Shown piece by piece: positions 51,673 through 64,000 of a DNA stretch of 64,000 nucleotides (within the stretch, counting starts at the first letter, position 1; every line of letters begins with the position of its first letter). The position numbers and the translations under genes were made by a program. Where the stretch lies: positions 122-64,121 of the forward strand of contig JBGSZT010000054.1 of the NCBI GenBank assembly GCA_041750255.1. The letters are read 5' to 3'. The notes beneath the pieces are model-generated. The model did not search any database. It was not told where the DNA came from and saw nothing but the letters and a program-made list of their open reading frames with translations. Source of the stretch: Synechocystis sp. GTDB lineage: Bacteria; Cyanobacteriota; Cyanobacteriia; Cyanobacteriales; Microcystaceae.

Positions 51673-52113
51673 ATGCTGGCTTTTATTTCCCGTGTTTGTT
51701 GTGTTTTTTGGCTGTGGTTATCGTTAACGGCCTGTCAGACGACCTCTGCCGCTCCTCCGTTAGAATTTGCCCCCGATGGTGAGATTGTCAAAACGGCGAT
51801 CGCCTATCAACTCCAGCTCAGCCAAACTCGTCTTAGCCAACAACTCCAGGCAACACCTCCCGGGCTGGCGATCGATGGGATTAAGGTGAATCAGATTGAA
51901 CCCATAGAAGTGGGCGGGCTGGCGGCCTATCACCTGCGGGGACGCTATGACGTGACCCTGACCCTACCCCGACAAACCGTAACCCAAAAACACAATCCCT
52001 TTGATCTGTATCTACAACGTCAAAGTGAAGGCAAAAGTTGGCGACTACTCCAGCGTCAGGTTAAAGCCGACCAAACAGAGCAATGGACTAGCGACCTGAT
52101 TGAGGTTAGCTAG
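51673..52113 (+). CDS. Hypothetical cyanobacterial lipoprotein
   Basis: Lipobox LTAC; YHLRGRY, NPFDLYLQRQ.EGKSWRL. Confidence 0.75.
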   Translation: MLAFISRVCCVFWLWLSLTACQTTSAAPPLEFAPDGEIVKTAIAYQLQLSQTRLSQQLQATPPGLAIDGIKVNQIEPIEVGGLAAYHLRGRYDVTLTLPRQTVTQKHNPFDLYLQRQSEGKSWRLLQRQVKADQTEQWTSDLIEVS

Positions 52114-53551
52114 GTTCTGTTTTTAGAAAAAGACTCGGGGCGCGCAGGCTTTTTTCCAGTTGGGCTTCTGTCAGCACCGGAAAATAAACCTTAAAGGTGG
52201 TGCCTTGGCCCGGTTTACTAAATACTTCGATAAATCCACCATGGTTTTTGATAATGCGGGAGACCGTGGCCAATCCCAGTCCCGTGCCTTTACCCTTGGG
52301 TTTAGTGGTAAAAAACGGATCAAAAATATTGTTGATAACATCGGGGGGAATACCAACTCCGGTGTCGCCCACCGCAATCATAAGATACTCAGAAGCCCAA
52401 GTCTCCGGCTGTTTTTGGATATGCTGATCGCCGAAAACACATTGATCCACCGCAAGGGTGAGCTGACCCCCGTCGGGCATGGCGTCACGGGCATTAATAC
52501 AAAGATTGAGAACTATTTGGTAGATATGGGTGGCGTTAGCACTGATTAAGCCTAGGGGCTGGGGAGTCATATCCAGATTAAAACTAATCGAGGGCGGCAA
52601 GGAATGTTGGATGGTTTTGGCGATGTCGAGAATAAAACTGCGCGATGGCAGGGGGCTGTATCCGGGAGGATTGCCTTCGGTAAAGCGGAGCATATCTTGG
52701 ACGAGATCAACTCCACGTTGGATGCTGTCTTGGATCACTTCCCAGGCCTCTCCATGAGACTCGTCCGAGGGAGAATCTTGCATCAATTGCAGTTGGGCAA
52801 AGCAAAGAATAGGAGTGAAAACATTCTTCAGGTCGTGGGCAATGCCATTGGCCACGAGTCCCAGGCTTTCCACACGCTGAGCCCGCAGGAACTGATACTC
52901 TAGTATCTTGTTTTTGTTGTGGATTTCAGACAGTTCGTTAGTTTTTTCACTAATGCGTAGACCCAAGCATTCACAGGCAACCCGCAATTGAGCCTCTAGG
53001 CGGTGATGGGAGCTGACATCGTGGAGCGACCAGAGTAGCATCGGCGGCAAATGTTCGGTGGCGGGCAACGGAATAACCTGAATCGCGACGGCTAGGGGCG
53101 GTTGGTGGCGGACTTTGAGTAGGAGTTCGCCTTTTGCTTTACTCAGGCTGAGTAGTTCGGTTTGAAAGCGGGTGCGGTCAGATTTGTGAATGAGAAGCAG
53201 TAATGGTTTTCGGTGCAGGTAGAAGGGGGAAGAGAATCCACACATGGCGGCGGCGGTTTGGTTTACCTGTTGGATAACGCCGCTGTTGTCGGTGACTACA
53301 TAGCCACCGGGCGCACAATCAAAGAGGAGTTGGTAGCGTTGGCGTTCTTGCTCTAGGGAGTGCTGAGTTAAGAGCAATTGTTGATTTTGGTTTTGGAGTT
53401 CTTCTTGGGAGGTCTGCAACTCTTCTAAAACATGGTAGAGCTCTTGCACGGCTTTTTCCAAGAGGCTATGCTGAAGAGTGTCGCCCTGGACATATTTTTC
53501 GAGGAGGGAAACTGGCCGGTAAACGGCTTCGATTTGCTCAGAAATGCTCAT
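52106..53551 (-). CDS. PAS-domain sensor histidine kinase without receiver
   Basis: N-terminal coiled coil, PAS (LFDCAPGGYVVTD), H-box IAHDLKN, NLCINARDAM, DTGVGI, FFTTK, GTGLGL. Confidence 0.92.
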   Translation of the reverse strand: MSISEQIEAVYRPVSLLEKYVQGDTLQHSLLEKAVQELYHVLEELQTSQEELQNQNQQLLLTQHSLEQERQRYQLLFDCAPGGYVVTDNSGVIQQVNQTAAAMCGFSSPFYLHRKPLLLLIHKSDRTRFQTELLSLSKAKGELLLKVRHQPPLAVAIQVIPLPATEHLPPMLLWSLHDVSSHHRLEAQLRVACECLGLRISEKTNELSEIHNKNKILEYQFLRAQRVESLGLVANGIAHDLKNVFTPILCFAQLQLMQDSPSDESHGEAWEVIQDSIQRGVDLVQDMLRFTEGNPPGYSPLPSRSFILDIAKTIQHSLPPSISFNLDMTPQPLGLISANATHIYQIVLNLCINARDAMPDGGQLTLAVDQCVFGDQHIQKQPETWASEYLMIAVGDTGVGIPPDVINNIFDPFFTTKPKGKGTGLGLATVSRIIKNHGGFIEVFSKPGQGTTFKVYFPVLTEAQLEKSLRAPSLFLKTEPS

Positions 53552-53674
53552 GTTCTCTTACCTCCTGCCGTTAGGGAGTTTTACAACATCTACTTTGATA
53601 GTTTAGTCCAAAATCTTCAAGGGTAACTGTGCATAGCAACACATAAAATTCACGAATCAGGCCGATCGCCAATA

Positions 53675-56632
53675 TCATCGATTATCGTCGATCGCCACCA
53701 GGATCAGCGGATTTCCCGACAGGGCGGGGATTTTGCGGACATTAATCATCATCGTTTTGGGGCCTAAATGATCGAATTCATGGTCAATTCTAAAATCATT
53801 AATTTCTGTATCACTACTTAACAAATCTTCTAAGAGTGTATGGAACGCCGGAATGTTCCATTGTCCTTGACTTAGGTCAAAAACAGTACCCTGCTCGCTA
53901 TCGCGGGGAGAAACCTGGAAACGCTCATAAAACTGCTGATTGGCAGTGATGACCTGGAACTCTGAATTCAAGACCAGCAAAGAGTCATGGACGGTTTGAA
54001 TCATGGCTTCGATGTAGTCCCGCGCCTCTTGCAATTGCTGGGTGCGACGCTTGAGCTGATCGATTTCCATCAACAATACCACTGTTCCATCAATGCGGTT
54101 GTCTAGGGTACGGTAGGGACGAATTCTGAGTTCATACCAAAGTCCGTTATTATCTTGAACTTCCTGGAATGTGGGGGATAGGGTCGCCATTACCTCCAAA
54201 ATTTGCTCCTCTAGGTCGCTAATCTGGAGATTATGCTTGATATCACTGAAGGGACGACCAATATCGGCGGGGATCAGATTAAACAGAGAAACCGCCGTGG
54301 GCGTAAAGCGCCGGATGTGGAGATTTTGTTCCAACATCAATATCGGAACATTCATGCTACTGAGTAGGTTCTGAAAGTCGTTACTGACCTTGATGGTGTC
54401 GGCATTGCGGCGAAATAATTCTTCGTTAATCGTGCTCAGTTCTTCGTTGGTGGCTTGGATTTCTTCCTTGGCGGTTTGCAGTTCTTCGTTGGTGCTTTGC
54501 AGTTCTTCATTGCTGGACAAAATTTCTTCATTCGCGGCCCTTAGGTCTTGGTTGGTGGCCTGTTGCTGTCCAATGATGGATTGTAGATGGGCTTTGGTGG
54601 TTTTGAGTTCCTGCTGGAGCCGTAGGATTTCGGCTTGGTCGAGGCGGCTTTTTTCGTGGGGTGCGCCCGTAAAGTTTTGGCCATCAAGGTTGGGCCGTAA
54701 GGATCCAGGAATTTCGGTGAATACAAGAATTTCGGTGAATACAATCAAAAAACAATTGTTTGTGCCGTTGGAGAGCGTAATCGGAACGATGTCGAGGCTG
54801 ATGGAGCGAGATTGGTCTAGGGAATAAACGGTGACACCATCTTTGTGCAGAGGCTCTCCCGATTGTTTGACCTGATAGATGGCGGTGTGAAGCTCAAGGC
54901 GCAATTCTTCTTTGACCATATCCAGTAAATTCAAACTCGCATGCCCCGGCGAGGGTTCCAGGAAGGGCCCCATCTGGCCGCGAAATTGAACAATGTCGAG
55001 CTGGGCATTAATAACAACGCCCTGGGGAGCAAAGCGACTGATGATGATCTTGTCAACGGCGGCGGAGAGCTCTGCTTCTGGGGATTTGGCTTTTCCGTCC
55101 CGATATTCTGGCATTCTGTCCGGTGCCGGGTGGGGACTGCCTAGCTCTATGGGTAGAACTAAGCCTGGTAACTGTTTAGTATAAACTTTGTTTTTGCGGT
55201 CGAGGAGATGAAAAAGATTGACATAATTACCGACGGTTTCCGACGACCCCAGGAGCAGAAAGCCATTGGGTTTGAGGCTGTAGTGGAACATTGACAACAC
55301 CTTTTTCTGGAGGGCCGAGCCGAAATAAATCAGCACATTACGGCAACTGATCAGGTCAATGTGGGAAAATGGTGGGTCATTGAGCAGGTTTTGGCGGGCA
55401 AAAACGCATAATTCGCGGACATTTTTGTTGATTTGATAGCCATTGCCGATCGCATGGAAAAAACGTTGGAGGCGATCGGGCGTAATGCCATCCAACTGAC
55501 TAGCGATATAGACTCCTAGGCGGGCTTTTTTGATAATCGGTTCGCTGACATCGGTGGCAAAAATTTGGATTTGGGGTTGATGGGGCTGATCAGCCAAAAA
55601 TTCGAGCAGAGCTATGGCGATGGAGTAGGCTTCTTCGCCGCTGGAACAACCCGCCACCCAGATCCGTACAGGCACATCGGCTGGGCGATCGCGCAGAATT
55701 GCCGGAAAGACCTGGGCTTTTAAGAGCTCAAAGGCATCGGTATCTCGAAAAAAACTGGTGACGTGGATTAATAATTCTTCGTAGAGGGCTTCAATTTCCT
55801 CGGGCTGTTTTTCCAGATATTGGATATAGTCCTCTAGTTTTTCGAGGCGGTAGAGGGCCATGCGCCGTAGGATGCGCCGTTGTAGAGTCGTGTGCTTGTA
55901 TTGAGCAAAATCTAGCCCAAAGACGGTGCGAAGCAGAGCAAAAATAGTGGAGAGAGCATCCCCATCTTGACCGACGATGGCATTTTCTAGTCGGTCTGTA
56001 GGTTGGGTAACGTAGGGATGCCGACTAATTTTGGCGAGTTCGGCCGCAATTCCCTCCGGTGGCAAAACAAAATCCACCTGCCCAGTGGCGATCGCCGTAT
56101 GGGGCATTCCTGTCACCTGGGCCGACAATTCTGACTGAGCAAAGGTAATCCCCCCAGCGGCCTTGATGGCTTCGAGCCCTTGGGCGCCATCGGTATCCCC
56201 GCCGGACAAGACCACGCCAATGGATTTATTGCCCCACTCCTGGGCCAAGGAATTAAAAAATAGATCTACTGTTTTAACCATCTTGGTGCCCAGACCCCGG
56301 GGTTCCAGGTGCAACGTATTCTGCCGGAGCGTCATCACCGTATCCGACGGAATAACGTAGACCTGATTGGGCGAAACGGTCATCCCCTCCTGGGCTTCCC
56401 ACACCGGCATGGAAGTGGTTCGAGCCAAAATTTCACTCAGCAAACTTTTTTGGCGCGGGTCTAGGTGTTGGACGAGGACAAAGGCCATCCCCGTATCCGT
56501 GGGCAAATGATTGAGCAGTAAAGTAAAAGCCTCTAAGCCTCCGGCCGACGCCCCAATACCCACCATCGGGAATGAATTCGAGGGTTGTAGAGAGTCTGAG
56601 GGAGGGGATTTAGAAGACTTCTTGGCAGACAT
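53675..56632 (-). CDS. CheB-CheR fusion with coiled coil and two PAS domains
   Basis: CheB triad motifs GASAGG, VQH, LSG..TDG; CheR motifs WVAGCSSGEEAYS, ATD, ISCRNVLIYF; EELQSTNEEL coil; PAS-PAS C-terminus. Confidence 0.93.
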   Translation of the reverse strand: MSAKKSSKSPPSDSLQPSNSFPMVGIGASAGGLEAFTLLLNHLPTDTGMAFVLVQHLDPRQKSLLSEILARTTSMPVWEAQEGMTVSPNQVYVIPSDTVMTLRQNTLHLEPRGLGTKMVKTVDLFFNSLAQEWGNKSIGVVLSGGDTDGAQGLEAIKAAGGITFAQSELSAQVTGMPHTAIATGQVDFVLPPEGIAAELAKISRHPYVTQPTDRLENAIVGQDGDALSTIFALLRTVFGLDFAQYKHTTLQRRILRRMALYRLEKLEDYIQYLEKQPEEIEALYEELLIHVTSFFRDTDAFELLKAQVFPAILRDRPADVPVRIWVAGCSSGEEAYSIAIALLEFLADQPHQPQIQIFATDVSEPIIKKARLGVYIASQLDGITPDRLQRFFHAIGNGYQINKNVRELCVFARQNLLNDPPFSHIDLISCRNVLIYFGSALQKKVLSMFHYSLKPNGFLLLGSSETVGNYVNLFHLLDRKNKVYTKQLPGLVLPIELGSPHPAPDRMPEYRDGKAKSPEAELSAAVDKIIISRFAPQGVVINAQLDIVQFRGQMGPFLEPSPGHASLNLLDMVKEELRLELHTAIYQVKQSGEPLHKDGVTVYSLDQSRSISLDIVPITLSNGTNNCFLIVFTEILVFTEIPGSLRPNLDGQNFTGAPHEKSRLDQAEILRLQQELKTTKAHLQSIIGQQQATNQDLRAANEEILSSNEELQSTNEELQTAKEEIQATNEELSTINEELFRRNADTIKVSNDFQNLLSSMNVPILMLEQNLHIRRFTPTAVSLFNLIPADIGRPFSDIKHNLQISDLEEQILEVMATLSPTFQEVQDNNGLWYELRIRPYRTLDNRIDGTVVLLMEIDQLKRRTQQLQEARDYIEAMIQTVHDSLLVLNSEFQVITANQQFYERFQVSPRDSEQGTVFDLSQGQWNIPAFHTLLEDLLSSDTEINDFRIDHEFDHLGPKTMMINVRKIPALSGNPLILVAIDDNR
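54709..54744. repeat. Exact 18-bp tandem duplication inside the CheB-CheR gene
   Basis: GAATTTCGGTGAATACAA twice; protein VFTEIL-VFTEIP. Confidence 0.9.
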
Positions 56633-56987
56633 TATGTATTGGGAACGGTAGAGAACTGATTTTTCAGTTTAGATGATTTTTGTTGGCTTCACAGAAAAGT
56701 CACGATATTTATATATAAAGGATATAAAGGTTAATGGACAGTTAAAGTGAGCCTGATTTTGGCTAAACCAACTGTAAATAAATTTGGCGTTAATAACATT
56801 TTCCCGCGTTATAAGGGGTTGCTACATCTTTCGTCTCCCCCGAAAAAGAAGTTTGATCCTCTTCTGATGTCAAGAATGATTAAATATTCAGGCAGTGATT
56901 TAGCTGTTTTTTAGTTACAAAAACCCTTGTTATTTCCCCATCGCCTGGGTTTCATCGAGTCTACATTCTCACACCAAACACTGAACC

Positions 56988-57617
56988 ATGGCCTATACAA
57001 TCGTCAATTTGACCTTGAAGTTATTGGAGCGAGAAATTGAAGATTTTCTTTGGGATTATCCTCCCAATCATCCCTACAGAATGGTTTGCTCTGTCCCCTA
57101 TCTTCATAATAAATTAGTGGCAACGGTTTTGAGTCGAGTTCCCAATCGCTATTGTGTTGTCGAGGAGACTAATTTTTCTGTTGGTGAAGTTGGTTTTTAC
57201 CAATCTTTGTTGGAAGAACGTATCTTGATTGAAGATAGGATTCGTGCGGCGATTCCAGAGCTAGTACAAAAAGAGGGACTTATGGCGGCGAAATTGGGCG
57301 AAATCGAGGTGGATTCTCCCCACGCCTGGTGGCTCAAGATTCATACTGCCACTCCCTGCGTTACCTATCATTTTGGCCCCTTTGCCAGCCACGAAGAGGC
57401 GAAGTTGAATTATTGGGGGTATTTAGAGGATTTGCTCCGGGAGCAAGCGGAGGGTATTTCCTTTGAGGTGAGGCAAGGTCAACCCACGGTTTTAACCCAG
57501 GAGGGGAATCAGGATTGGTCGGAGACCGTGGCTTCTTTTTCTGCCTCCCCGACGTCTCGCTTCACTCCTGCCAGTCCAGTAATGAGCGAATCTGCTGGAG
57601 TAGGTCTGAGGCCTTGA
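56988..57617 (+). CDS. CdgR/ComFB-like N-terminal domain fused to DUF1816
   Basis: N-term NLTL..LEREIE...YP..HPY.....P.L..KLVA.VLSRVPNRY......LEER..IE; C-term AWWLKI.T..P..TYHFGPF.S..EA.....GYLEDL..E.A.GI. Confidence 0.7.
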   Translation: MAYTIVNLTLKLLEREIEDFLWDYPPNHPYRMVCSVPYLHNKLVATVLSRVPNRYCVVEETNFSVGEVGFYQSLLEERILIEDRIRAAIPELVQKEGLMAAKLGEIEVDSPHAWWLKIHTATPCVTYHFGPFASHEEAKLNYWGYLEDLLREQAEGISFEVRQGQPTVLTQEGNQDWSETVASFSASPTSRFTPASPVMSESAGVGLRP

Positions 57618-57936
57618 AGGGTTTGAGGATCATACCGGCGATCGCCTGATTTTTGCAGTAGTCTTGCATATTGGCCTTGGCGGTGAGAAAAATAACGGGA
57701 ATGGGGCATGTTTCAGGATTGGTTTTGAGAGCAGTCAGGGTACTTAGCCCGTCCATACCCGGCATCATCACATCTAGCAGGATGGCATCGGGATGAAGTG
57801 CCTGGGCCAGTTCTGCTCCTTGACAACCAGAATTGGCCGTCCAAACTTCCCATTTGGTCAGGGCCTTGAGGGCAATTTGTACAATTTTACAAATGCCGGG
57901 GTCGTCGTCAATAATCAGTACTCGTTTGGTGGTCAT
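57562..57936 (-). CDS. Single-domain response regulator (CheY/RcaF-like)
   Basis: VLIIDDD, ILLDVMMPGMDG, FLTAK, KPF; overlaps the kinase stop. Confidence 0.93.
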   Translation of the reverse strand: MTTKRVLIIDDDPGICKIVQIALKALTKWEVWTANSGCQGAELAQALHPDAILLDVMMPGMDGLSTLTALKTNPETCPIPVIFLTAKANMQDYCKNQAIAGMILKPFKASDLLQQIRSLLDWQE

Positions 57937-60433
57937 AGCTGGGGTTTAGGGGTAGGGTGAAATAAAAATTCGTGCCTTGGCCAAGGTTACTTTCGGCCCA
58001 AATACGGCCGCCATGGCGTTCGACCACGTTGCGACAGAGGGCTAAGCCCAGACCAATACCTTCTTTGGCGCGGATGTCAGAGCTATCGGCTTGGTGGAAA
58101 CGCTCAAAAATAGTATCCATGCATTGAGGGGTGATGCCCCTGCCTTGGTCCGCAATCTTGAAGAGAACAACATTGCGTTTTGGCCCGAGGGGATGCTCGT
58201 CGATGGCAAAACAAACTGCTATTTCAACCGTGCAGTTGGGTTCTGAAAACTTGATGGCATTGCTGAGCAGGTTGATCAAAACTTGCCCCAGGCGATCAGG
58301 GTCGGCCCAAATGTAATCGACTACGATTGAGGTCTGGAGATGAATGTGTGCCTGGCTGGCCATGTCGGCTAAGGCGGCGATCACCGTTTGGACGATAGTT
58401 TGCGGGTCGCATTTTTGTTTTTTGATGACAATCTGGCCGGCTTCGAGGCGTTCTAGGTCGAGGATGTCGTTGACGAGGCGAACCAGACGGTCGATCCCTT
58501 GCATCGCAATGCCGGTCACCATTCGACTGTCCTGGGGACTAAGGTCGAGATTGACGTCACTAAGTAGACTCAGGGAGGATTGAAGATAGGTTAAAGGAGT
58601 ACGGAGTTCGTGGCTGACGATGGACATAAACTCAGATTTGAGCCGCTCTAGGTGGTAGCGTTCGGTGATATCTCGACCAATACTAATGACGCCAATGGCC
58701 TCACCGTTGGTATTATTGAGGACGGTATTGTGCCAGCTAATCATGTGTTCTTGCCGGGATGGGGTGACCAGGACTTCTTCGATGTAGTCGGGGAATTGGG
58801 TCTGAAGGGCTTGAGTAAAGGATTGGTAAATTCTGGCCTGGCGATCAGGGGAAATAAAGGTTTCAAACCAGGATTGACCGATAATATCGTCGCCTTTGAC
58901 CTGGGCTACTTTTTCAAAAAAAGGATTAACGTAGCGGATCTTGCCCTGCTGGTCTACTTCTACCACTAACATTTGAATTTGATGGAGCAGAGAGCGCCAG
59001 CGCCGGTTAAATTCCTTGAGGGCGGATTCATTTTCCTTGCGTTCTGTAATATCTTGGAAGACGCCGACCACACCAATGATTTTGCCAGACCCATCGCGTA
59101 GAGGTGCTTTATGGGTTTCTATGTGCCGCTTTACGCCATTGGGAAGGGTGATTGTTTCTTGGATCGCTAGTTTTGGTTCTCCCGATGTCATCACCTCTTC
59201 GTCGTCCCGACGATAGGCGATCGCCTCAGACTTTGACGAGACAAGATCAAATTCACTGATTCCGACCCCGAGATCAAAATCAGATTTACCGACAATCTCC
59301 GCCGGTGAGGATAGTCCCATGGCCATCGATAATCGTTGATTACACCCGAGGAATCTAGACTCCCGGTCTTTCCAGAACAATGGCAATGGCATGGTATCCA
59401 GCAATGTCTGAATAAACTGCTCAGAATTGGATAAAGCCTGTTCTGTTTCTTGATGCTCAGTAATATCCGTCACCATCTGTAATCGCCCCAAATAGTGATG
59501 CTGGGAGTCGAATATCGATGTAACCGAGACGAGCGCCCAGAGGGTCGAGCCATCCCGATGATAAAAGCGGCAATTTTGCCGATGAATACATCCTTCCTTT
59601 TCTTGACAGGTCGAGTCTAATTTCAAATCAGCTAGGCTATCGGGGTTGATAAAATCCTGGAAGGGTTTTCCCTCCATTTCTGCCACCGAGTAGCCCAACA
59701 TCTTGGCCATGGCCAGATTGACCATAACCGTATTGCCCTGGGGGTCGGTTTGCCAAATCCCCTCACTGGCGGTATCGATGACATTTTTATAGTTTTTTTT
59801 GGTGAGGCTGAGTTTTTTTTGTAGGGCCTGGTGCTGGCTCAATCCTTCTAACAGGTAATGATAGGAGGTATCTAGGTCTGAGCGTTGTTTTTTGATTTGG
59901 TTTTCTAGGTCTAGATTAGCCTGATATAACTTTTGTTCAATCTCTTTGCGCTCAGTAATATCGAGGCCAATTCCCTTCATACCGATGGGGTTTCCCTGGG
60001 CATCGTAAATAAGTTCTGCCCGCACACTATGGAAGCGAACTCGACCATCGGGTAAGCAAGTGCGGTGTTCACTGGCAAAGGGTTGACCATTTAATGCTTG
60101 GTCGATTTCGCTTAGGACTCTATCCTTGTCGTCGGGATGGAGGAGACTGACAAAAAGATTGAAATCAACGGGGTCGGTGGCAGAAAGACCAGAGAGCCGT
60201 CGTAATTCCTCTGACCACCAGACTTCATTGGTTATTTTGTTCCAATACCAATGGCCAACCTTGGCCAGGCGTTGGATGTCGGCGAGGAGAATTTCGTAGG
60301 ACTCTAGGCTATCGAGATCGGGTCGAGGATGGTTTAAAGATGGTGGCCGTCGGAGTTTCAATTCAGCATTTTCCCGTCGTAATGCCTTGAGCTCCTCAAT
60401 CAGTTCTGTTTTTTTTTTGCGGCGATCATTCAT
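57908..60433 (-). CDS. Cytoplasmic multi-PAS (four PAS/PAC) histidine kinase
   Basis: PAS/PAC ends DITERK, DITEHQ, DITERK, DITERY; H-box VSHELRTPLT; NLLSNAIKFS, DQGRGI, GLGLA; no TM segment or GAF seen. Confidence 0.93.
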   Translation of the reverse strand: MNDRRKKKTELIEELKALRRENAELKLRRPPSLNHPRPDLDSLESYEILLADIQRLAKVGHWYWNKITNEVWWSEELRRLSGLSATDPVDFNLFVSLLHPDDKDRVLSEIDQALNGQPFASEHRTCLPDGRVRFHSVRAELIYDAQGNPIGMKGIGLDITERKEIEQKLYQANLDLENQIKKQRSDLDTSYHYLLEGLSQHQALQKKLSLTKKNYKNVIDTASEGIWQTDPQGNTVMVNLAMAKMLGYSVAEMEGKPFQDFINPDSLADLKLDSTCQEKEGCIHRQNCRFYHRDGSTLWALVSVTSIFDSQHHYLGRLQMVTDITEHQETEQALSNSEQFIQTLLDTMPLPLFWKDRESRFLGCNQRLSMAMGLSSPAEIVGKSDFDLGVGISEFDLVSSKSEAIAYRRDDEEVMTSGEPKLAIQETITLPNGVKRHIETHKAPLRDGSGKIIGVVGVFQDITERKENESALKEFNRRWRSLLHQIQMLVVEVDQQGKIRYVNPFFEKVAQVKGDDIIGQSWFETFISPDRQARIYQSFTQALQTQFPDYIEEVLVTPSRQEHMISWHNTVLNNTNGEAIGVISIGRDITERYHLERLKSEFMSIVSHELRTPLTYLQSSLSLLSDVNLDLSPQDSRMVTGIAMQGIDRLVRLVNDILDLERLEAGQIVIKKQKCDPQTIVQTVIAALADMASQAHIHLQTSIVVDYIWADPDRLGQVLINLLSNAIKFSEPNCTVEIAVCFAIDEHPLGPKRNVVLFKIADQGRGITPQCMDTIFERFHQADSSDIRAKEGIGLGLALCRNVVERHGGRIWAESNLGQGTNFYFTLPLNPSYDHQTSTDY

Positions 60434-60469
60434 AGACCAGTTTCCAATTTATCAATGAGTAAAGATTCC

Positions 60470-62974
60470 TTAAACAGCCGGTAGGACTTGATTGCGCCCG
60501 TGGCTTTTGGCTCGATAGAGGGCGGTATCAGCGGCTTGATACAAGCTTTGCAAATCATCACCATCCTCTGGAAACTGGGCAATGCCGGCGCTAAGACTAA
60601 TCTGGAGTGGATTTTCGTCTTTGCCCATGATTTGATGTTGACTAAAACGATGGCTTAATTCGGTCAGGCGTTGTAGCCCGCTTAATTTGTTGATGCCGTA
60701 CATAGCCACCAAAAATTCATCTCCGCCCCAGCGTCCCACCACATCTTCGCGCCGAAAGAGTTGGTTGAGCAGTTGCCCCAGGTAGCGCAAAACTTGATCG
60801 CCAACGTCGTGGCCATGCTGGTCATTAATGCGCTTAAAAAAGTCTAGGTCTAAAATGCTAAAGCTGAGGGGTTGTTTTTGTCGTTTGGCCAGGTAAAGCA
60901 GTTGGGTCAAGTCTTGCAGAAGTTTACGCCGTAGACTCACCCCCGTCAATTCGTCGATATCGGCTAAGGTCCACAGCTTGCGTTGTTGCAGCCGGGCCTG
61001 AATATGATTCAAAAGCTCGTCTCCATTGATCGGTTTTTTGAGAAAATCATCGGCGCCGGCACTGATGCCGTCTTGAATGGTTTTGAGGTCGGTGTGGACC
61101 GAGAGGAAGATAACCGGCAAACGATTCCAGTGGGGGTCACTGCGAATAATTTTGCAGAGGTCGATGCCATTGAGGGGAGAAACCAAAACATCATCATGGC
61201 CAGAGCCATTACCATTGGTGGTGTAAGGAGCGAGTTTCAGGCGATCGCCGAGTTCAATATCCAGAATCAATAATTCCGGGGTCGATTGCTCTAGCACCTC
61301 CCAAAAATGGTTGGGCTGATCGAGTAGGGTCAATTGATAGCCGTGGGGTTTTAGCAAGGTTTCGATGCAATGCAATAAATCCGGGTCATCATCCACCACC
61401 ATCAAGCGAGCATTTTTGAGATTATTGGATTGCAACATCTGGGTGGCGGTGGTCAAAATCTGAAAGGAGCTGAGGGGTTTGGAGAGGAAACATTGACACC
61501 CCAGCCGTGATGCTTCGATGCGGGAGGTCATGGTATTTTCCGTTGTCAAGATCATCACCGGAATTTCGGGGTGTTGAGCCTGCAAGTGCCCCAAAAACTT
61601 CAATCCCGTTTTGCCCAGATTGGGGAAATTCAAATCCAGGATAATCAGTTGAGGGAGTTGTTTTTTGAGATAGGCCTTGGCTTGTGCGAGCTGGGTAGCC
61701 ATTTCTAGCTCAATGCCCCAGGTCACGGCCTCCGCTACCACGGTTTCAGCGAATAAAAAATCATTATCTACAATCAGTAGGCCCCGATAGAGGGTAGATT
61801 CCCCCAGGGATATGGGCGGAGACACCACCGTCAAGGACGGCAAGCCATCCACGCTAAAGCATTTTTCTAACTCTCGGCTCAGCTCCTGGAGTTGGTCGAT
61901 ATCCACCGGATCTAGTTGCTCTTTACTGCGAAAAATCGTCTGGATTTGCAAAGAAATCTGGGACGCATCTTCTAGCCCAAAGGAGCCGAGGGAACCGATC
62001 AGGGTATGGATTTCGGCTTCGGCCTCCTGGCGTTGGTCGGCACTCAGACTGCCCTCGTTCCGCAACCGCTGAATCGCCATTTTCACCACCAAAAAACGAT
62101 GGTAGTAAGCGTGTCTGCACTCCAACCAGGCTTGGCAGAGTTCGGGGGAAAAGGAAATATCGTGACTCAAGTCTTGGAGTTCGGGGTCGTTGCCCTCGGG
62201 GCTAGATACAACAAGGCTTCTATAGTCTTTGAGGCGATAGCCTAATTTATAGACGGTTTCTAAAATATTCTCACAGCCCGCTTCTTTGAGTTTTTTTCTC
62301 AGCCCTTTGATGTGGGAACGCACCGCTCCTTCGCTGGGATATTGCTCCGAAGTCCAGAGACGATCAAGCAACTGGCTCGAGCTAAAAATTCGGTCAGGAT
62401 TTCGCAAAAACAATTCCAGTATTTCGTATTCCTTTGAGGCCAAGGGAACCATGTGCTCGGCGTAGGTGACCTCACAGGTATTGGGGTTCAGGCGCAATTG
62501 TTCATAGGTCAAGATTGGCGATCGACTGCCTTTACTACGGCGCAGTAGGGCGCGGATACGAGCCAATAATTCTTCAATGACAAAGGGCTTAATCACATAG
62601 TCATCGGCGCCAGCATCCAAGCCAATTATCTTATTATTTACCTCGTCTAACGCTGTCATCAAAAGTACCGGAGTGTCTCGGTTCAGATTAAGAACAGTAG
62701 AATTATTACTCCGGAGTTGCTTACAAAAATTGATGCCATCTAGCACCGGCAACATCAAGTCAAGCAAAATAATGTCGTAGGGATAGGATTCAGCCAAATT
62801 CCAACCCATTCGGCCGTCGGAGGCCAGCTCAACCTGATAGTTTTTTTTCACTAATATGTCCTGGAGAAGTTTAGCGAGTTCTTGATCGTCTTCAACACAA
62901 AGAATTTTCACAGGCGTAAGAAATAAGGGTTTAAAGTTTGGCGAATTGTGGTAAATATCATCGAATTTGATCAA
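60470..62974 (-). CDS. RcaC-like multidomain regulator: REC-OmpR wHTH-Hpt-REC-REC-GGDEF
   Basis: REC1 LLDLMLP; wHTH ending ETVYKLGYRL; Hpt HTLIGSLGSFG; REC2 ILDLNFP; REC3 ILDIE; GGDEF RREDVVGRWGGDEF. Confidence 0.92.
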   Translation of the reverse strand: MIKFDDIYHNSPNFKPLFLTPVKILCVEDDQELAKLLQDILVKKNYQVELASDGRMGWNLAESYPYDIILLDLMLPVLDGINFCKQLRSNNSTVLNLNRDTPVLLMTALDEVNNKIIGLDAGADDYVIKPFVIEELLARIRALLRRSKGSRSPILTYEQLRLNPNTCEVTYAEHMVPLASKEYEILELFLRNPDRIFSSSQLLDRLWTSEQYPSEGAVRSHIKGLRKKLKEAGCENILETVYKLGYRLKDYRSLVVSSPEGNDPELQDLSHDISFSPELCQAWLECRHAYYHRFLVVKMAIQRLRNEGSLSADQRQEAEAEIHTLIGSLGSFGLEDASQISLQIQTIFRSKEQLDPVDIDQLQELSRELEKCFSVDGLPSLTVVSPPISLGESTLYRGLLIVDNDFLFAETVVAEAVTWGIELEMATQLAQAKAYLKKQLPQLIILDLNFPNLGKTGLKFLGHLQAQHPEIPVMILTTENTMTSRIEASRLGCQCFLSKPLSSFQILTTATQMLQSNNLKNARLMVVDDDPDLLHCIETLLKPHGYQLTLLDQPNHFWEVLEQSTPELLILDIELGDRLKLAPYTTNGNGSGHDDVLVSPLNGIDLCKIIRSDPHWNRLPVIFLSVHTDLKTIQDGISAGADDFLKKPINGDELLNHIQARLQQRKLWTLADIDELTGVSLRRKLLQDLTQLLYLAKRQKQPLSFSILDLDFFKRINDQHGHDVGDQVLRYLGQLLNQLFRREDVVGRWGGDEFLVAMYGINKLSGLQRLTELSHRFSQHQIMGKDENPLQISLSAGIAQFPEDGDDLQSLYQAADTALYRAKSHGRNQVLPAV

Positions 62975-63257
62975 AATTTGCAGGATATTTACAGATTGTG
63001 TAGTTTGTGTTCATGGAAAGCATACCGACCATTGACTGTATTCATCTGTATTCATATTTACTTTTTCATATTTACTTTATTTTGTTATTTTGTATTTTGC
63101 TAAAAATGCTAAAAACGGAAGATTAGAGGGCGGGTTGCGCATTGTTCTGAGCCGGGGTAATAAAACAATGCAATACCAGTACTCTAGGCAGAGTCGTATA
63201 AATTGACTGACTCGTGAAGAAAAACTAGCTACGGAAAAACTTTGTGAACTAGCTTAG

Positions 63258-63293
63258 GAAAGTTTTGTGAAAGTTTTGTGAAAGTTTTGTGAA
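63258..63293. repeat. Three tandem 11-bp repeats GAAAGTTTTGT in the divergent promoter region
   Basis: Exact units at 63258, 63269 and 63280 plus a partial GAA; further TTTGTGA at 63241 and 63307. Confidence 0.9.
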
Positions 63294-63816
63294 CCAAGTC
63301 AATAATTTTGTGAGAATTCCGTGAATAATCTTGGCTGATTTTTATTAAAAATAGGACGACGTGTTTTCTGTCCACTGAAGCCAGCGATCAGACCAGAATA
63401 GTCCATGATTGTTGGGAGGAATTAAGCCCAGCTTGCGAAACGCATGTTCTTGTAACAATGTTCGTATTTACAAGTGATTTTCCAACCTGGATTTTCCTTT
63501 TCTAGGTTTTTAACCCTAATATCTTCACCGGTAACAGTCTCGATTTTAAAAGTTTTAGATGATTTGGTTCTAATCATTTTCAGTCAAAAGATCCCGTATC
63601 TAATTTCAGTAAAACTACGGTTGTCATAAATCACAAAACAATGTGGAGCTGATTTTTCGACTATTTTGAAACAAAATTGAGATCAATTAATCTAGTTCTA
63701 CTAGCTATTTTTCCTGATATATGCAATCGTCATTTTCTGGAAATTCTACTAGCCAGATTTTTGCTGGCAAAATTTATTTCTGCTGTTAACCTTGCTAGGT
63801 TTCTATCACTTAAATT

Positions 63817-64000
63817 ATGGAATTCTCACCCGCACCATTTTCCAATGAATCCTCTTCTACGCCTGAATTGGCTTTTATTAGCTCGACTATTAGTGACTAT
63901 AGTAGTCTTGCTCAGGTTGTTTCATCCCAAGCTCAGCTATTTTTTCTGGAGCCGGGACAGGCAGAAATTGAACAAATTAGTGAAGTCTTGTCCCGATATC
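63817..64000 (+). CDS. 5' end of a DUF4347-domain (large surface/secreted) protein, cut by the window end
   Basis: Manual translation MEFSPAPFSNESSSTPELAFISSTISDYSSLAQVVSSQAQLFFLEPGQAEIEQISEVLSRY..., matching the start of the DUF4347 pattern (LVFIDS.V.DY..L...V......L....DGIEQI...L). Confidence 0.65.
   Translation, partial: MEFSPAPFSNESSSTPELAFISSTISDYSSLAQVVSSQAQLFFLEPGQAEIEQISEVLSRY

Follow-up and report, generated by a model that had tools for sequence, protein, structure and literature searches.

A probable operator and core promoter of TTCACA direct repeats in front of an RcaC-like regulator operon in Synechocystis sp.

The described sites closest to the element that we analyse here are direct repeats bound by OmpR-class regulators. 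The L box of RcaC has the sequence TTGCACA-N4-TTGCACA. The pho box of E. coli consists of 11-bp direct repeats (a 7-bp core, CTGTCAT, and a 4-bp A/T-rich spacer), which replace the -35 element about 10 bp upstream of the -10, and promoters with several pho boxes exist. HLR1, the site of RpaB, reads (G/T)TTACA(T/A)(T/A) with a 2-nt spacer and a 10-bp period; RpaA and RpaB are near-universal in cyanobacteria. To our knowledge no complex OmpR-class regulator of cyanobacteria other than RcaC has had its operator defined, and the L box itself is known for pigment genes alone. Phosphorylated RcaC binds L boxes in the promoters of chromatic-acclimation genes (PMC8256508, PMC5737509), the system in question being type 3 chromatic acclimation of Fremyella diplosiphon (Li et al. 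2008, PMID 18346116, as cited in PMC8256508). In the literature that we searched, neither TTCACA direct repeats nor RcaC-like regulators with a GGDEF domain are the subject of any paper.

The array described here lies in a stretch of 64,000 nt from Synechocystis sp., below called the window, which belongs to a genome of 3.59 Mb (G000). An earlier note on this DNA had proposed it as the operator of the RcaC-like protein encoded beside it. The features of the window that enter the argument are these:

63266-63293, minus strand: array A, three perfect TTCACA half-sites (63293-63288, 63282-63277, 63271-63266) with a period of 11 bp
63251-63256, minus strand: candidate -10 element TAAGCT, 9 nt 3' of the proximal half-site (TTCACA-aaactttcc-TAAGCT)
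63243-63248, minus strand: single TTCACA half-site, directly 3' of the -10 and overlapping the predicted start site
62912-63242, minus strand: predicted leader of about 330 nt, with no ORF longer than 24 aa
63309-63325, minus strand: box B, TTCACG-gaatt-CTCACA, PWM score 17.0 bits, rank 11 in the genome
60470-62911, minus strand: RcaC-like complex response regulator, REC-wHTH(Trans_reg_C)-HPt-REC-REC-GGDEF, 813 aa (Pfam), the presumed binder
57908-60433, minus strand: histidine kinase with four PAS domains (Pfam), next gene of the operon
57562-57936, minus strand: single-domain receiver in an RcaF-like position (Pfam), last gene of the operon
63817-64000, plus strand: start of the divergent DUF4347 gene (Pfam), which no box faces
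56687-56704, plus strand: weak pair TTCACA-gaaaa-GTCACG, candidate low-affinity site facing the DUF1816 gene at 56988-57617 (Pfam)

Tandem Repeats Finder reports a period-11 tandem at 63258-63293 of the plus strand, GAAAGTTTTGT in 3.3 copies, free of indels and matching at 100%. The minus strand has the sequence GG-TTCACA-aaact-TTCACA-aaact-TTCACA-aaactttcc, and on the plus strand the TGTGAA hexamers stand at 63288-63293, 63277-63282 and 63266-63271. The heptamers GTTCACA, TTTCACA and TTTCACA follow each other at an exact 11-bp spacing, which is the repeat format of the L box. Two additional TTTGTGA half-sites are found at 63241-63247 and 63307-63313. The five plus-strand TGTGA cores thus start at 63243, 63266, 63277, 63288 and 63309, and with gaps of 23, 11, 11 and 21 nt all five would lie near one face of the helix. 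The repeat array is therefore confirmed by the sequence and by the repeat finder, including the extra half-sites in helical phase. Pairs of TTTCACA-N4-TTTCACA with at most one mismatch occur twice in the window against 0.02 expected, and a genome scan, which had been proposed as a check, finds the exact pair only once in the 3.59 Mb, at the array itself. The lone heptamer TTTCACA is not enriched (5 found against 10.9 expected), so the signal resides in the phased repetition.

The repeat is also found beside homologous regulators. We compared a first set of 29 RcaC-like loci (164 kb) with 74 ordinary OmpR-type loci as a control (386 kb), counting all hexamers X that form perfect X-N5-X repeats and comparing periods from 7 to 15. 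TTCACA ranked top, in 6 of the 29 loci, with the next unrelated hexamer at 2, while TTCACA-N5-TTCACA occurred in none of the 74 control loci. A second set of 26 new full-length homolog loci, taken from an order-wide search, was gathered after the hypothesis had been fixed. TTCACA was top again, with 8 perfect repeats and with 19 of the 26 loci carrying a repeat of at most one mismatch. In the first set TTCACA repeats occurred at period 11 only among the periods 7-15, with none at period 10, and the second set gave the same picture. Conservation upstream of orthologs was another of the proposed checks; the repeat stands beside homologs in at least 15 genera, although kin among these loci, for example eight from genus g49, are not independent. 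When the window's 940-nt upstream region was compared by blastn with four ortholog upstream regions, the boxes were the sole conserved non-coding blocks. Some genomes (G068, G034, G094 and G147) showed no perfect box near the ortholog. Sites of at most one mismatch number 12 in the whole window genome, and 9 lie outside long ORFs.

The conserved geometry extends to the -10 element. Among 31 non-redundant, homolog-linked sites a TANNNT starts 9 nt after the proximal TTCACA in 17 and 10 nt after it in 2, every other offset being found in at most 3 of the 31; the window site has the 9-nt offset. At 17 nt upstream of TAAGCT there is no -35-like hexamer, and ACAAAA stands there instead. A scan for the sigma-70 consensus found sites no more numerous than in shuffles, a null result that fits an activator-dependent promoter without a -35 element. 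From this arrangement we infer a transcription start near 63244 on the minus strand, which would put the repeats of array A at about -38 to -22. Across 401 genomes of the order, the composite TTCACA-N5-TTCACA-N9-TANNNT has 381 matches in 128 genomes, compared with 3 for the reversed control. Its one match in the window genome is array A, facing the regulator operon.

The regulator is the only RcaC-like protein encoded in this genome. Its wHTH domain belongs to PF00486 (E 3.5e-20, Pfam), and the recognition helix AVRxHIKGLRxKL is conserved across the family. The array had been placed about 285 bp upstream of the regulator start, which is true only for the mechanical TTG start at 62974 (ORF 60470-62974). 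Ortholog alignments set the conserved start at the GTG at 62911 (VKILCVEDD), exactly where nucleotide conservation begins, so that the proximal half-site lies 355 nt upstream. A small receiver similar to the last gene of the operon is present in homolog clusters.

We consider it probable that the adjacent RcaC-like regulator activates its own operon from array A, which would act as both operator and core promoter. The regulator would presumably be phosphorylated via the PAS kinase, the small receiver and its own HPt domain, and its wHTH domains would then bind the direct repeats head to tail. Standing in for a -35 element, the repeats would bring RNA polymerase to the -10, TAAGCT. Transcription would run through the leader into the regulator, kinase and receiver genes, an arrangement of positive autoregulation, with activation presumed rather than repression. 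The two proximal units would be the canonical site and the identical distal third, probably a recent slippage duplication, would add a further in-phase half-site; the older, degenerate box B and the half-site at the start point may modulate occupancy.

The genes behind the box in other genomes give the most serious alternative. In most relatives it is not the regulator that stands directly behind the box. The commonest first gene, at about 15 loci, lies 70-110 nt downstream in the same direction and encodes a cysteine-rich protein of 54-70 aa with the form MNxCPCCSxxxLRHxRxHxIYWFCxxCxxEMP, here called the CPCC protein, for which no Pfam family reaches threshold. The gene can be upstream of, divergent from or downstream of the regulator. 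Between it (or the box) and the regulator, four genomes (G030, G273, G259 and G022) have an ORF of 130-156 aa without Pfam match. Examples are:

L108:6208-6372, plus strand: CPCC gene, also found at L115, L116, L120-L127, L129, L133, L135 and L107
L108:6412-6804, plus strand: ORF of the 130-156 aa type
L106:6580-7050, minus strand: ORF of the 130-156 aa type

The window genome has neither gene. A CPCC gene was found neither by tblastn nor with the family HMM against all six-frame pieces, and between box and regulator there is only the leader. With the CPCC gene missing, the promoter could be a leftover, which once drove this gene and perhaps the longer ORF, both since lost, and which is now decaying or serves by incidental read-through. 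The box-regulator distance of 355 nt equals that in G238, where a CPCC gene fills the gap, and the leader is long and riddled with tandem duplications. We nevertheless think such a relic unlikely. Three perfect half-sites and a -10 at the canonical offset have been kept, in what is the sole perfect composite promoter of the genome, and the family HMM detects no CPCC remnant. Moreover, in G027, RM1_1_8, G136 and G238 a box with the same direction as the regulator gene or operon stands 76-355 nt ahead of it, and in the first three of these (at -76, -114 and -247) the regulator is the next gene, without a small one in between.

Several further observations concern the DNA around the array. A BLAST match to the CPCC protein in the leader was weak though well placed (63220-63170, E 0.26), and the family HMM gave nothing there (best E 0.24), so this candidate was rejected. 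Upstream of the array, at 63345-63577 on the minus strand, two overlapping small ORFs of 51 and 37 aa lie in different frames and have no family matches. The segment was considered as a relic of the 130-156 aa ORF and rejected, as the matches are weak and non-collinear; relative to the box that pairs with that of G022 in the alignment, they also fall on the wrong side. Within the leader, 63036-63115 is made up of four abutting perfect short tandem duplications (10 bp x2, 14 bp x2, 8 bp x3 and 9 bp x2), and the spacer that contains them is unusually duplication-prone. An Rfam scan of 62800-63900 found no family, with a sub-threshold snoRNA match only, and a sigma-70-like promoter match is located at 63770-63743 on the minus strand.

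Returning to autoregulation by the adjacent protein, the next question is whether the box is read by this regulator or by another. Ten genomes with an ortholog contain 34 perfect TTCACA-N5-TTCACA repeats against 6 in the reversed control, and five genomes of the same genus without the regulator are at background, with 1 perfect box against 1. In G030, a genome of 6.5 Mb, there are two perfect boxes in total and both are less than 11 kb from the ortholog, one upstream of the regulator operon and the other 7.6 kb downstream in the same signalling cluster. G027 has seven perfect boxes with an identical spacer (TTCACAAGTTTTTCACA), three of them on the regulator's contig. The G027 boxes (L109, L169-L174) precede sensors, receivers and the regulator, and two further sites in that genome read TTCCCA-N5-TTCACA.

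The box might also be bound by some other member of the OmpR family, for instance RpaB, RpaA or a further paralog, and the adjacency would then be incidental. Many boxes are indeed far from any RcaC-like gene, and the presence of box and close homolog is only loosely matched between families: in f19 the box is found in 11 of 11 genomes and a close homolog in 1 of 11, and in f7 the figures are 4 and 12 of 27. We find this quite improbable, given the background counts in the five genomes without the regulator, the location of both G030 boxes in the regulator cluster and the family f30, where box and regulator are both found in 0 of 11 genomes (f1 has almost none of either). The f19 genomes encode proteins of 804-886 aa whose REC-wHTH part is 51-56% identical to that of the window regulator, and HLR1 is a TTACA-type site with a 10-bp period, whereas here the period is 11 only. 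On these distributions we assign the box to the RcaC-like wHTH clade, and from the linkage we infer that the window's wHTH regulator would be cognate for the array. Since the linkage is imperfect, with orthologs lacking a perfect box and boxes lying at a distance, paralogous RcaC-like proteins probably share the box.

The history of the array itself seems to include slippage. Box B is degenerate, precedes array A by two helical turns (21 nt) and contains the half-site at 63307; the box of the closest ortholog, in G022, aligns best to box B (19/23, blastn). The half-site at 63243-63248 belongs to a tandem duplication of 23/24 bp that comprises half-site and -10 (D7: 63223-63237, 63247-63261). 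Together with the three identical units, this duplication suggests recent slippage. That the units are perfectly identical shows recent duplication and not long-term selection for three sites, and the third unit of array A is probably such a slippage duplication. Perfect three-unit arrays of TTCACA with other spacers are found in G068 (AATAT) and G273 (TAAAT), so that three in-phase half-sites recur as a form:

L142:3088-3115, plus strand: perfect three-unit TTCACA array
L168:378-405, plus strand: perfect three-unit TTCACA array

The G068 array stands before a gene for an exoprotein with a TPS secretion domain, and the G273 array 371 nt upstream of a gene for a CpcL-like linker with a hydrophobic tail.

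One could go further and take the whole array for a slippage VNTR without function, situated in an AT-rich spacer that is prone to duplication, as its three units are identical down to the spacer and as five tandem repeats occur within 1.1 kb in addition to the 23/24-bp duplication. This is highly improbable when the repeated core is precisely the hexamer, and 11 bp precisely the period, found conserved next to homologs from at least 15 genera at a fixed -10 offset, when the whole genome has 5 perfect arrays with a period of 8-14 and at least three copies, and when the same core recurs in three units with different spacers in G068 and G273. Hardly credible, lastly, is that the divergent DUF4347 surface-protein gene is the main target of the array, through repression or through activation from a distance: boxes do precede secreted or surface genes elsewhere (the TPS exoprotein in G068, Wzz in G022, a glycosyltransferase and small secreted proteins in the window genome), but the array is 524 nt from the ATG with small minus-strand ORFs between, and the control of this gene that the earlier note had added is unsupported, because half-sites and -10 all face the regulator and no plus-strand box lies before 63817.

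An ortholog of the regulator was found in 0 of 13 genomes of the same genus, from which the whole cluster at 52.1-64 kb is missing, with synteny ending at about 52061; the cluster is thus accessory within the genus and looks like an accessory island. It is composed, at 52100-64000, of a CheB-CheR-PAS gene, a DUF1816 fusion, the regulator operon and the DUF4347 gene. A scan of metagenomes with the array flank, made in search of a second strain, matched at one place only, by chance and in unrelated DNA. The kinase encoded behind the ortholog in G030 has 766 aa and a phytochrome-type N-terminus (CDREPIHIPNAIQP; L108:9303-11603, plus strand) and occupies the place of the window's PAS-only kinase.

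Beyond the regulator clusters and the CPCC gene, boxes are found before kinases and receivers (G027, Acaryochloris, G030), before a Wzz chain-length protein with two boxes (G022), before the TPS-domain exoprotein of G068 and before the CpcL-like phycobilisome linker of G273. Next to an Acaryochloris homolog (L021) there are two TTCACA boxes. One other genome (G029; L107) has a perfect box before a DUF1816 gene. In the window the weak pair facing such a gene was also noticed earlier, and CTTCACA-GAAA-AGTCACG is indeed present at 56687-56704, with two mismatches in one half-site. It scores 14.6 bits with the PWM and ranks 29 in the genome, which has 181 sites with at most two mismatches (0.018 expected per 356 nt); at offset 9 it has TATAAA, not TANNNT. 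The next-best TTCACA-type sites of the window genome include:

C68:59405-59421, plus strand: next-best site
C163:3626-3642, plus strand: next-best site
C53:31385-31401, minus strand: next-best site
C39:12428-12444, minus strand: next-best site

These sites precede genes for three small proteins with signal peptides, a PEP-CTERM-like protein of 116 aa, one unclear target and a group-1 glycosyltransferase. It is possible that they are members of a regulon with a cell-surface theme.

Taken together, TTCACA-N5-TTCACA-N9-TANNNT may represent an undescribed class of activator-dependent promoters throughout the Cyanobacteriales, read by RcaC-like proteins that are transcription factor and diguanylate cyclase in one, with the zinc-ribbon-like CPCC protein as the ancestral core target and with lineage-specific surface, exopolysaccharide and secretion regulons. 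We put this forward tentatively, as possible rather than probable. If it is true, one phosphorelay would set transcription and c-di-GMP together. The presence of a c-di-GMP synthase domain in the regulator, and of boxes often before surface, polysaccharide and secretion genes, suggests a possible coupling of transcription to the second messenger, and the system may link the two outputs in decisions on aggregation or biofilm formation. A sister family of RcaC with the architecture REC-wHTH-HPt-REC-REC-GGDEF, found in many genera, would in this way gain a concrete candidate operator, a promoter rule and candidate regulons. As the box is short, strict and rare by chance, these regulons can be predicted genome by genome, and the predictions could be tested by simple gel-shift and reporter assays.

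How does the array compare with the known systems? It shares with the L box the heptamer direct repeats, the 4-nt spacer and the 11-bp period, and the heptamers agree at 6 of 7 positions. The presumed binder has the REC-wHTH-HPt-REC core of RcaC with the conserved recognition helix, and a third half-site in phase is found in both, although it is weaker in classical L boxes. The heptamer differs, being (T/G/A)TTCACA and not TTGCACA. The L-box sequence that we used was checked indirectly, through its order-wide enrichment and the genes behind it: in the 401 genomes TTGCACA-N4-TTGCACA matches 45 times, its control 3 times. The premise about the L box holds in this respect, and the TTGCACA boxes lie 87-335 nt upstream of cpcB-like genes (MLDAFTKVV...) in three loci and before a rod linker in another. 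These boxes (L153-L156, at about 1501 or 456) often have a third degenerate TTGC half-site in phase, and in G306 an RcaC-like gene for a protein of 652 aa is found 1.4 kb from a TTGCACA box on the same contig. The exact L box has 0 matches in the window genome, and TGCACA repeats are found in none of the 55 homolog loci. By these counts the TTCACA and TTGCACA boxes are separate populations, one base apart, and the array is not a canonical L box. We also looked for a specificity residue that could separate the two kinds of binder, but the recognition helix is too conserved to name one. The original proposal of an autoregulatory operator thus survives in part: an L-box-like operator of the OmpR/PhoB class is very probably tied to the adjacent regulator, whose operon it faces, but control of the divergent gene is unsupported.

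The genes served also differ. L boxes belong to phycobilisome and bilin promoters, with cpcB and rod-linker genes behind them, whereas the array precedes a signalling operon and TTCACA boxes in general are found at regulator clusters, the CPCC gene and exopolysaccharide or secretion genes. The window regulator has an extra REC and a GGDEF domain compared with RcaC, and the kinase of its operon carries PAS domains without a bilin-binding GAF domain. HLR1 resembles the array as an OmpR-class direct repeat with a T-rich, ACA-containing core in cyanobacterial promoters. In contrast to HLR1, the core is TTCACA and the period is 11 only, with zero loci at period 10, and the box is not found in lineages that are expected to have RpaB. 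Compared with PhoB, a two-domain response regulator, the presumed binder is a six-domain phosphorelay regulator with a cyclase output, and the core differs from CTGTCAT. In its architecture the array is nevertheless like the pho box of PhoB class II promoters, with direct repeats of one helical turn in place of the -35 element, a TANNNT at 9-10 nt and a wHTH regulator encoded next to it.
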